64,000 nt of DNA from Escherichia coli (GTDB taxonomy: Bacteria; Pseudomonadota; Gammaproteobacteria; Enterobacterales; Enterobacteriaceae): NCBI RefSeq assembly GCF_048403405.1, contig NZ_CP183136.1; one strand, given 5' to 3'. This document shows positions 39,084 through 56,856 of this stretch, piece after piece (positions within the stretch are counted from its first letter, which is position 1; the number at the start of each line of letters is the position of its first letter). Made by a program: the position numbers and the translations under genes. The notes below the pieces were generated by a model. That model had not been told where the DNA came from. It did no database searches and saw only the letters and a list, made by a program, of their open reading frames with translations.

Positions 39084-39217
39084 TAGTCTGGCAGGGCAAG
39101 GGATGGGTAAGGTGAAATCTATCAATCAGTACCGGCTTACGCCGGGCTTCGGCGGTTTTACTCCGGTATCACATGTAACCACAGCGTGCCGCCTTCCATG
39201 CCGCTGGCGCGGCATAA
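39084..39217. repeat. Copy of a short element (GGTAAGGTGAAA..CAGTACCGGCTTACGCCGG..GCCGCCTTCCATGCCGCTGGCGCGGCATAA) repeated near 47.7 kb in the same orientation
   Basis: Near-identical stretch at 47724-47815 and a diverged copy at 419-494; contains hairpin CCGGCTTACGCCGG. Confidence 0.6.
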
Positions 39218-39433
39218 GCATATGTTGGTGGCTGTGTCTGAAAGGTTATATACTCTGCATAAAACCTGACAACACGCAGATTGCCAGGCAAATGAGCATT
39301 ATGCATCCGGTTATCGCCTGCCTGTGAAACAATATCACCGGGGCGAATATCGATACTCTGACTCGTTATACCCATGCGTGCGGCATCAAAAAACCTGCAA
39401 TTGCCCTTTATTGAATGAAAGGGGGAGTCAATT

Positions 39434-39697
39434 ATGAATAGCACCACACATTACGAAAACGCCAATTTCCTGCGCGAGCTGGCCGAAAGCCTGCCTCGTA
39501 TTTTTCCAGAAGGCAGTACAGACAAGTCTGCACTATTGCAACGCCTCGCTAATGAAGAACTGGCACGGGCGGAATACGACGAACAGATCCGAGCGAAAGT
39601 TGCCGCTGCCCGCGCCGATAAGCGGCCGGGAATGAGTTCCGCGCAACTGCGCCAGCAACTACAGGGACGTTATCAGGAACTGCGCAATGAGTTATGA
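39434..39697 (+). CDS. Type II antitoxin (ParD/RelB-like)
   Basis: 87-aa ORF overlapping by 11 nt the downstream toxin ORF. Confidence 0.65.
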   Translation: MNSTTHYENANFLRELAESLPRIFPEGSTDKSALLQRLANEELARAEYDEQIRAKVAAARADKRPGMSSAQLRQQLQGRYQELRNEL

Positions 39698-39986
39698 AAT
39701 AGAATGGCGACCAGGTGCGATTGAGGATATAACGGCGTTGTTTGAATATCTGGTCGAGAATGCATCTCTTTGGGATGCAAGGAACGTGACAGAGCGTCTG
39801 ATCACTGCAACCGATCGCCTGGCTGATTACCCCAGGCTGTATGAAACGGATGAACGCTATGGTGAAGGGGTTCGCCGTATTAGCTTACTTGGACAGCATG
39901 TACTTTATGAAGTGAATGATGAGGCCAGTCGTGTCAATATCCTGGCGGTTGTAGGCCAGCGTCAGAATCCCCGATTCATTCTTTGA
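39687..39986 (+). CDS. Type II toxin of the RelE/ParE superfamily
   Basis: 99-aa ORF with RelE/ParE-like character, overlapping the upstream antitoxin. Confidence 0.7.
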   Translation: MSYEIEWRPGAIEDITALFEYLVENASLWDARNVTERLITATDRLADYPRLYETDERYGEGVRRISLLGQHVLYEVNDEASRVNILAVVGQRQNPRFIL

Positions 39987-40021: not shown

Positions 40022-40687
40022 TCAACGTTCTTTAGCTCCTTCCACTAACAGCCGACCTATCTCAAACACCGCAGCTGACCGTCCCGACTTCACCGCTTCG
40101 GCTTTCTGTCCCTCAACAAACCAGTTATTACCGTCCGTTCGGACCAACTCAAACATCCATGACATATCGTAAACGTGTTCCGGGATCAGCGACCCTTCTC
40201 CGGCCAGAATACCCGCCGTTATGGAGTGGTTGCCCCCGTGCACAAAGCCAATACGCCAGGGCAACCACAGGTCAACATAGTGGTTGTTTTTATCTTGCTT
40301 CCACGGCTTCCCCTTATGGGTTCCAATGCGTGAAACGTTATCGATATAGCGTGGTAGGCTCCAAGGCCACGGCAGCACTATGTCGCTTGCCAGCGACAAC
40401 GGATAATCAGCGCCGTTCATCTCACACTCTTTCATCTTTTCGTAAGATTGTATTTGGGTAAGTCCCTTAAAGAAGAACTCCTGCGGGGTCATATCCGGGC
40501 GGGCATCTGTTCCCTCCTCAGCTACCGCCAGCAAGAAATCACTCTGTACTGGCCGCACGATAGCGCGAATGAGATCTGGTAGCGCCTTAACGGGTAGTTT
40601 CTCTGCCACAGAAAGCAGATGATTGAAGCGTTTTTTTTCATTGGCTATAGTTGCTTTATCTTTCTTGTTTCGGTTCCAGAACATCAC
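40022..40687 (-). CDS. Hypothetical protein, 221 aa, no recognised domain
   Basis: Clean ORF convergent with the TA pair, same strand as the mcb operon, separated from mcbG by about 570 bp without ORFs. Confidence 0.5.
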   Translation of the reverse strand: MMFWNRNKKDKATIANEKKRFNHLLSVAEKLPVKALPDLIRAIVRPVQSDFLLAVAEEGTDARPDMTPQEFFFKGLTQIQSYEKMKECEMNGADYPLSLASDIVLPWPWSLPRYIDNVSRIGTHKGKPWKQDKNNHYVDLWLPWRIGFVHGGNHSITAGILAGEGSLIPEHVYDMSWMFELVRTDGNNWFVEGQKAEAVKSGRSAAVFEIGRLLVEGAKER

Positions 40688-55789: not shown

Positions 55790-56395
55790 GTTTTTTCCTG
55801 ATGTTATGTTTCTGTGGTTACTGTTCTTCTTCTTCCTCTTCTTTCCGTTCCTCTCCTGTTTATGCCTTTTCCGGGCGTCCCCCTGGCGGGGCGGGCTGTC
55901 GTGAACGGAGCCAGCGGAGCTGTCTCCGCCCTGGCGGGCTTCCATCCCTGACGCAAAACCCCGGGTTTGCAGCGACCGGAACGGTCGCGCCACCCCTGTC
56001 GCGCCGTGGCCTGCGCTCCCGGCATCCCGGCAAAAAGACGCCGGGATGTAAGGAGCAACGCCGTTTCGCAAACCGCGCTTCACGTCGTTGCAGCGGGTCC
56101 CTGCTCATTGCCTGCCGGGTGCCACACACCCGTATGAGTCCCTGTCGCCGGGGGCTGATACAGCCACAACCTGCCGCACTGACTGTCCAGGGTAAATGAA
56201 CAGCCCACAAAATTTTTTACCCAAAACCCGGTAAAAAATTTTGCGTTCTGCCCAGGACAGGTGCGTCAGGCCGTGGCAGTGATGCCCCTTGCGGCGAAGG
56301 TTCTCAAACGGGTGAAGTTCATACCACAGGGAATACAGCAGCAGGTTCCCGCGAAACGTCAAAACCGCGGCTCCCGAAACTCAACGGGTGATGTT
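55790..56395 (+). repeat. Large repeat, family B copy 1 (about 600 bp); Frpo-type single-strand promoter candidate
   Basis: Long near-identity with 59040-59695, including hairpin CAAAATTTTTTACCC..GGGTAAAAAATTTTG. Confidence 0.7.
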
Positions 56396-56625
56396 CTTTA
56401 AAAATCAGGATTTATTTCAGGCTCCGGCAATACGCATTTATGTGTTCTGTCAGTCATCCGGCTGGCAGGTAATGAAAACGCAGGAACAGAAGGAGGAAAA
56501 CACCGGAAAGCGTCAGATGCAGATATGAAAAAAAGCAGGTCAGGGACCTGCTTAATCCACGCCGTAAGAATTGTGCGACCAATTTTGACGGCATTGTTAA
56601 CCAATTTGTCATAAGGAATCCATTT

Positions 56626-56856
56626 ATGACTGTAAGCATTGTTTCACCTTCCGCAGCGGCTGTAAAGCCCCGCCGTCATCCCCGTTTCAGACGCGAAGAC
56701 ATCCCCGCGCCGGAACTTGACCCCGTGCTGAAAGCCTTCGGGCGACACATTGCCCGGAGTTTTCGCCGGGGGCGTGGTGTACACATCCCCGCCATGAAAA
56801 ACACGGCCTTCGGGCAGGTGCTCCGCACACTCGAACTGAAACGCGCTTTTAACTGA
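56626..56856 (+). CDS. Hypothetical small basic protein
   Basis: 76-aa ORF, first after the family-B repeat. Confidence 0.4.
   Translation: MTVSIVSPSAAAVKPRRHPRFRREDIPAPELDPVLKAFGRHIARSFRRGRGVHIPAMKNTAFGQVLRTLELKRAFN

Follow-up and report, generated by a model that had tools for sequence, protein, structure and literature searches.

In the IncFII replicons of R100 and R1, the site just beyond oriR is held by pemIK/parD (kis-kid), which encode an RNase of the MazF type (PemK/Kid) and an antitoxin of the AbrB/MazE type (PemI). Which module occupies this site in the plasmid considered here, and how would it act? The window, i.e., the whole 64-kb stretch of DNA that was analyzed, represents an IncFII conjugative plasmid in which the tra genes are followed by finO, repA, a DnaA box, a toxin-antitoxin (TA) pair, a convergent DUF6710 gene and the microcin B17 operon. 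It is collinear with published pMccB17 at a constant coordinate offset of 16676, and the region is 100% identical to many plasmids of roughly 70 kb. We found no similarity to PemK, PemI or CcdB anywhere in the 64-kb window. The first-pass annotation had described two overlapping small ORFs of 87 and 99 aa downstream of oriR, at the pemIK site and at the edge of the cargo segment. Both ORFs were recovered on the plus strand, with an overlap of 11 nt between the stop of the first and the start of the second. The pair lies ~1.07 kb past the repA stop (38367) and ~0.9 kb past the DnaA box (38543), between the IncFII replicon and the cargo, which is the pemIK/parD position of R1/R100-type plasmids. 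It probably represents an addiction module. The features concerned are as follows.

39421..39427, plus strand: Shine-Dalgarno sequence of the antitoxin gene, GGGGGAG, 6 nt 5' of the ATG (read from the sequence)
39434..39697, plus strand: ORF A, antitoxin gene, 87 aa, ATG start (ORF list and Shine-Dalgarno sequence)
39675..39679, plus strand: Shine-Dalgarno sequence of the toxin gene, AGGAA, inside the antitoxin coding sequence (read from the sequence)
39687..39986, plus strand: ORF T, toxin gene, 99 aa, ATG start (ORF list and Shine-Dalgarno sequence)
40022-40687, minus strand: DUF6710 gene, 221 aa, Pfam E 1e-48, convergent with the toxin gene and situated before mcbG
41257-~46400, minus strand: complete microcin B17 operon, mcbG to mcbA

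The A-T pair constitutes an ordinary addiction-type module and is already known, since both public records and the pMccB17 paper annotate it. The exact A and T proteins are each found on >1000 contigs, under the database names 'plasmid stabilization protein' or 'hypothetical protein' (A) and 'RelE/ParE family toxin' (T). In the pMccB17 annotation they appear as 'relB/parD 56110..56373' and 'relE/parE 56363..56662', followed by gene_14 and mcbG, and the accompanying paper mentions a type II ParDE system downstream of repA, on which it reports no experiment (PMC10912980). Our literature searches retrieved no toxicity or stability experiment on the pair, and the search with the RefSeq protein accessions of the two products yielded no paper. 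As for the neighboring genes, the DUF6710 protein had no match in NCBIfam, PHROG or PADLOC. We observed that microcin B17, McbG and a putative gyrase-poisoning ParE are encoded within 2 kb of each other; microcin B17 itself poisons gyrase, and McbG is a gyrase-protecting pentapeptide-repeat protein.

A and T are real genes and not chance ORFs, because T passes the ParE_toxin HMM and because the reading frames and lengths of both are kept in diverged copies, in which pN is low and pS is saturated. Five diverged copies (72–78% nucleotide identity) retain the two frames together with the 11-nt overlap, which measures 4 nt in a sixth (L020), and the products of the diverged copies are 86–88 aa (A) and 99–100 aa (T) long. 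In these copies pS reaches ~0.6–0.8, i.e., saturation, against a pN of 0.06–0.24 (0.09–0.24 for the toxin), and across lineages dN/dS does not exceed 0.15 for either gene (0.05–0.15 for the antitoxin). Within the IncFII lineage, the window differs from a Salmonella Poona plasmid (L017) by 10 synonymous and 2 non-synonymous codon changes. Such substitution patterns point to strong purifying selection on both genes. The translation signals are retained as well: the GGGGGAG of the antitoxin gene is also present in L017, in a Salmonella IncI plasmid (L016) and in an E. coli IncF plasmid (L018; CP077268), while the AGGAA of the toxin gene is kept in a 4-kb Klebsiella plasmid (L003; NZ_AP022083) and in two further copies (L004 and L006). 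Two small, co-oriented and overlapping genes that are inherited together make up the generic type II TA architecture, and most of the contexts that we inspected retain both the pairing and the 11-nt overlap.

Based on profile comparisons and on the predicted fold, we assign T to the ParE family. The protein matches the Pfam ParE_toxin profile (PF05016) at 49.1 bits, with a cut-off of 23 and an E-value of 8.6e-13, over profile positions 1–88 of 89. With a T family profile built from 36 full-length relatives, the best match in PDB was ParE2 of E. coli O157 (5cw7_B; E 6.2e-17), and the next ten matches were all ParE-type toxins or ParE-like homologues, including those of C. crescentus, Mesorhizobium, M. 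tuberculosis, P. aeruginosa and V. cholerae. The ParE fold consists of an N-terminal alpha-hairpin on a three-stranded antiparallel sheet; the AF2 model of T has the order helix-helix-strand-strand-strand, with pLDDT of 96–98. When this model was compared with PDB by Foldseek, the top 16 matches were all ParE-type toxins, and it superposes on ParE2 at an rmsd of 1.3–1.4 Å with ~24% sequence identity. Within the family, T belongs to a fairly narrow subfamily, since a phmmer search over 1.84 billion representative proteins gave just 98 matches at E <= 0.001, with many of the matching sequences carrying frameshifts or truncations. The close subfamily conserves a tryptophan, W29 (39771–39773), where the predicted alpha-hairpin turns (SLWDA). 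In V. cholerae ParE2, a tryptophan of the ParE-specific alpha-hairpin is reported to be key to gyrase binding (preprint 10.1101/2025.07.24.666505).

The HMM family search proposed in the first-pass annotation thus placed the toxin (PF05016) and left the antitoxin under every cut-off. A passes no Pfam or NCBIfam library model; the single sequence scores 18.7 bits against Pfam PaaA2 (PF21217; cut-off 27) and 21.6 bits against NCBIfam RelB_antitoxin (cut-off 50), the latter over residues 46–68 alone. In a phmmer search of PDB, PaaA2 was retrieved at E 0.003, and the A family profile matches PaaA2 chain 5czf_A at E 2.9e-6 over residues 46–85. Several members of the A family carry a precomputed PF21217 match, and PHROG 3936, a 63-position profile, matches A at E 9e-4. 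We presume that residues 46–85 of A represent a PaaA2-like toxin-binding region. The best solved relatives of A and T are the two chains of one complex, PaaA2 and ParE2.

A had initially been read as an antitoxin of the ParD/RelB type, and this assignment did not hold. No ribbon-helix-helix match to A was found in Pfam or NCBIfam. Since AF2 gives three helices (residues 3–23, 28–61 and 69–88) and no strand, both for A alone and for A with the toxin, A is predicted to be an all-helical protein rather than a ribbon-helix-helix protein of the ParD/RelB type, with a C-terminal half that is PaaA2-like. A ribbon-helix-helix reading of the N-terminus, made by eye from a G-S-T turn, was likewise discarded, as AF2 gives helices only. 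Residues 51–87 are modeled at pLDDT 61–79 in A alone and at 88–97 when A is fused to the toxin, and the pTM is 0.54 for A alone and 0.80 for the fused A-T pair (pLDDT 87.5), which fits a tail that becomes ordered upon contact with the toxin. In turn, the N-terminal hairpin (residues 1–45, ~44 residues) is confidently predicted with or without the toxin; a Foldseek search with A alone retrieved generic helical hairpins only, at E >= 0.96, and nothing at E <= 0.001. This hairpin is, unexpectedly, the most conserved stretch of A, and all of the 26 diverse A sequences compared share HYENANFLRELAESLP and LLQRLANEEL without change. With a pN of 0.055 and a pS of 0.69 over codons 1–22, the conservation of the hairpin acts at the level of the protein. 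Residues 1–45 have a net charge of about -2, and DNA binding by the modeled hairpin is unlikely.

How the pair may be expressed was approached through the region upstream of the antitoxin gene, in which the following elements were distinguished.

39140..39164, plus strand: terminator-like GC hairpin with a T run, located between oriR and the module and conserved in L017 and L018 (consensus scan)
39225..39254, plus strand: candidate sigma-70 promoter, TTGGTG-18 nt-TATACT, at a deletion junction (permissive scan, 8/12 consensus)
39277..39414, plus strand: XRE-family HTH pseudogene, the C-terminal 45 codons with an internal stop (PGAP annotation of an identical E. coli plasmid)

There is no intact regulator gene next to the pair in the window. 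In L016 (positions 1390–1981 compared), intact genes for a 109-aa Gp49 protein and a 93-aa HTH_3 protein are positioned directly upstream of the pair. This alignment indicates that the XRE pseudogene is a remnant of the HTH_3 antitoxin from a HigBA-like (Gp49 + HTH_3) module and not a working part of the pair. Relative to L016, the IncFII lineage shows a ~480-bp deletion with its junction at 39220–39263, and it is this deletion that removed the HigBA-like module from the lineage of the window. The possibility that the pseudogene is a decayed third gene of the PaaR type was rejected, as its L016 counterpart is an HTH_3 antitoxin beside a Gp49/HigB-like toxin. In L018 (~1880–1925), the junction carries a 12-bp perfect inverted repeat, AAGGTTATATAC-N8-GTATATAACCTT, of which the window lacks the right arm.

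The hairpin at 39140..39164 would shield the pair against transcription entering from the replicon. Between this hairpin and the antitoxin gene, the site at 39225..39254 is the sole promoter-like one, and a stricter scan upstream of the antitoxin gene, with a threshold of 9/12, yielded no site. L017 and L018 carry its TTGGTG and TATACT hexamers unchanged despite ~10% divergence elsewhere, and transcription probably starts at this weak promoter made by the deletion junction. A putative hairpin sequestering the Shine-Dalgarno sequence (CCCTTT-N8-AAAGGG, 39404–39423) was dismissed, as its stability does not exceed that of shuffled sequence (z = +0.6). Homology to the 72–78% copies extends from precisely the antitoxin ATG to a point ~14 nt short of the toxin stop. 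Upstream of the ATG, the diverged copies are unrelated, and no motif common to them rose above chance; on this ground a conserved operator or promoter of the cassette was also rejected. We noted an extended -10-like motif, TGCTA(A/C)ACT, 35–45 nt upstream of the antitoxin ATG in L004, L006 and L020, which is absent in the window. Because the upstream contexts vary and include stand-alone copies, the cassette appears to bring along neither an operator nor a regulator gene.

The cassette was detected on IncFII, IncI, ColRNAI, Rep3 and roughly 3-kb Mob_Pre plasmids, in hosts belonging to Escherichia, Klebsiella, Salmonella, Pectobacterium, Dickeya, Xenorhabdus and Serratia. Across these contexts, the antitoxin gene invariably precedes the toxin gene, and the cassette moves as a unit. 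It is fused behind a rep-like gene in L013, and in L016 it is located 19 nt behind the XRE antitoxin gene. In L003, the pair is preceded at a distance of 14 nt by a 41-aa ORF (799–924) similar to the C-terminus of PemI/Kis (BLASTP E 6e-11), which suggests that the cassette of this plasmid sits in or beside a former pemIK site. Stand-alone cassettes with divergent or unrelated neighbors are found in L004, L020, L022 and L024. We had considered that the cassette always follows a gene for a small DNA-binding protein, as in the window, L003, L006, L009, L013 and L016, and abandoned this rule, since it was not borne out by four further contexts, in which the neighbors are divergent or of unrelated kinds. 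In L017 (3019–3578), a second TA pair, composed of a ribbon-helix-helix protein and a RelE/ParE protein, follows the homologous pair at a distance of 466 bp. TA modules seem to accumulate at the replicon-proximal site.

Some copies of the cassette are decayed. In L018 (2000–2540), the antitoxin gene is a pseudogene with an indel and a stop, and the toxin gene has several substitutions in an almost intact frame. The toxin of L016 (2254–2553) has 7 non-synonymous changes, which are clustered and include V62G, R64C and L68S, and numerous database variants of the toxin, with L026 (595–848) among the loci noted, show frameshifts or truncations close to the C-terminus or clustered substitutions. Such variants would fit either repeated attenuation, in nature, of a toxin that is costly or errors of assembly.

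We consider it likely that A and T form a two-gene type II TA operon in which a ParE toxin, probably a gyrase poison, is paired with a PaaA2-like antitoxin, and which stabilizes the plasmid by post-segregational killing. Gyrase is the established target of several ParE toxins. By analogy with RK2 ParE, V. cholerae ParE2 and ParE^I, T would poison DNA gyrase and so provoke DNA damage, SOS induction and filamentation. A would neutralize T by wrapping its PaaA2-like C-terminal helices (about residues 46–87) around the toxin, and is presumably protease-unstable; upon plasmid loss T would be freed, and growth would stop or the cell would die. The low-copy IncFII microcin plasmid, which also carries parMR and hok/sok, would be stabilized in this manner alongside these two systems. 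The analysis itself shows the gene pair, its family membership, the predicted folds, the selection, the distribution and the context, while toxicity, the gyrase target, antitoxin lability, post-segregational killing and the promoter are inferred, the steps of the mechanism from related systems. The paaR2-paaA2-parE2 locus stabilizes mini-F, and ParE2 induces SOS and colocalizes with the nucleoid, its target being unproven (PMC8630535). In turn, ParE^I encoded on IncI/IncF plasmids is toxic, SOS-inducing and plasmid-stabilizing (PMC6614396). That the pair is a type II TA system of the RelE/ParE type, as first proposed, is borne out by the HMM, profile and predicted-fold evidence, which agree with the pMccB17 annotation (PMC10912980).

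Three other explanations, i.e., an RNase of the RelE type, an inert remnant and a non-segregational role, are less likely than a ParE addiction module. That T acts as a RelE-type, ribosome-dependent mRNA endonuclease and not as a gyrase poison is highly improbable. ParE and RelE share one superfamily fold, and T scores 14.6 bits against NCBIfam RelE_StbE (cut-off 27.9), aligns with E. coli RelE in hhalign at E 3.5e-5 and retrieves RelE and YoeB structures in Foldseek. Yet, the latter rank after the ParE-type toxins that fill the first 16 places, with lower TM-scores for RelE, and in the profile search against PDB, where RelE/YoeB reach near 1e-3 at best, the ParE-type toxins are ahead of them by 6 to 14 orders of magnitude. 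The catalytic residues of RelE are Lys52, Lys54, Arg61, Arg81 and Tyr87; in the hhalign alignment with RelE, Arg61 stands opposite His71 of T, Lys52/Lys54 fall in an unaligned region, and the alignment ends before Arg81 and Tyr87. A PaaA2-like partner, moreover, pairs with a ParE. Because of the profile ranking, the top Foldseek matches and the position of Arg61 opposite His71, T appears to be of the ParE type and not an RNase of the RelE type. From the double RelE/ParE label of the first-pass annotation, ParE is therefore retained (PF05016, ParE2 profile and fold matches), while RelE is dropped.

The pair might instead be an inert or poorly expressed leftover, whose promoter was taken by the deletion together with the HigBA-like module and whose genes hitch-hike beside the replicon. 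The ~480-bp deletion relative to L016, which leaves the XRE pseudogene directly upstream, the lack of a promoter site at the 9/12 threshold and the decayed copies in related IncF and IncI plasmids (L018, L016) would fit this explanation, which we nevertheless find unlikely. Both ORFs are intact and identical on >1000 contigs, and the TTGGTG and TATACT hexamers are invariant while the flanking pseudogene decays. Decay would be expected of a silent toxin gene; as the changes in the deletion-bearing IncFII lineage are mostly synonymous (10 vs. 2), decay of the pair in the window is argued against. An active pair could also serve mainly another benefit, such as stress or antibiotic tolerance, plasmid competition or abortive infection against phages. 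ParDE^I of IncI/IncF plasmids raises antibiotic and heat tolerance (PMC6614396), some cassettes reside on multicopy ColRNAI plasmids and on plasmids of roughly 3 kb, for which the killing of plasmid-free segregants matters less, and relatives of the pair in PHROG families come from prophages. However, a role in stability agrees with the replicon-adjacent site on a low-copy plasmid, the related paaR2-paaA2-parE2 locus stabilizes mini-F (PMC8630535), and the PADLOC anti-phage defense models gave no match to the pair, all of which makes a different main benefit quite improbable.

Alongside the reading as a ParE addiction module, we put forward with some reserve a broader proposal, namely that the A family may form a distinct class of ParE antitoxins. 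Its members would combine a PaaA2-like tail with an invariant hairpin that does not bind DNA, and would be part of a portable two-gene cassette that has no operator or regulator of its own and borrows expression wherever it lands. Expression could be borrowed from ad hoc promoters or from a gene lying in front, either a rep gene or an antitoxin gene of the HigA-like or PemI-like kind, and the hairpin could act in oligomerization, as a protease degron or in contact with a host factor. If true, the existence of such a class bears on whether the ancestor of PaaA2 had a DNA-binding domain, a question raised earlier (PMC8630535). If A is truly devoid of DNA binding and of a dedicated regulator, the pair offers a simple two-gene model for the balancing of ParE modules without autoregulation.

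The practical value of these findings is modest. They sharpen the annotation of a very common plasmid pair, in that the upstream 'hypothetical' or 'plasmid stabilization protein' would be a PaaA2-like antitoxin and the toxin is of the ParE type. They also indicate that pMccB17-type IncFII plasmids use the A-T module, and not pemIK, at the replicon-proximal TA site. A microcin B17 plasmid with McbG provides, furthermore, a natural setting in which to ask whether a pentapeptide-repeat protein guards against a ParE toxin.

Among known systems, the closest is PaaA2-ParE2, encoded by the paaR2-paaA2-parE2 locus of the E. coli O157:H7 prophage CP-933P (PDB 5cw7, 5cze, 5czf and 3zbe), which is the best solved relative of both A and T. 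Like PaaA2, A is predicted to be helical, has no recognizable DNA-binding domain and is encoded upstream of the toxin gene. In contrast to the three-gene prophage locus, the A-T pair consists of two genes without a PaaR-type regulator and is plasmid-borne, and A, unlike the 63-aa PaaA2, possesses an additional invariant N-terminal helical hairpin of 44 residues. 

The ParDE systems of RK2 and of chromosomes (C. crescentus ParDE1, 3kxe; M. tuberculosis ParDE1, 8c24; V. cholerae ParDE2, 7r5a) share with the A-T pair the ParE fold, the order of the antitoxin gene before the toxin gene and, presumably, a role in plasmid stability. Yet, their ParD proteins have an N-terminal ribbon-helix-helix domain that dimerizes and binds the operator, whereas A has no predicted strand and its cassette no conserved operator. 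The ParDE^I/YacAB systems of IncI and IncF plasmids and of Shigella pINV (PMC6614396; PMC9455713) are, like the A-T pair, ParE-superfamily TA pairs located near the replicon. We rejected the identity of the two systems. The published yacAB primer that was tested has no match in the window, and tblastn against the yacA(B) locus of pWR501 gave a chance-level match for A (E 2.5) and none for T. Similarly, hhalign of the A family with Shigella YacA reached E 0.099 over 18 columns, which is not significant, and YacA/ParD^I is a ribbon-helix-helix protein, unlike A (PMC6614396). Finally, the pair resembles pemIK in its position beyond oriR and in its presumed addiction role, while the proteins of the two modules are unrelated.
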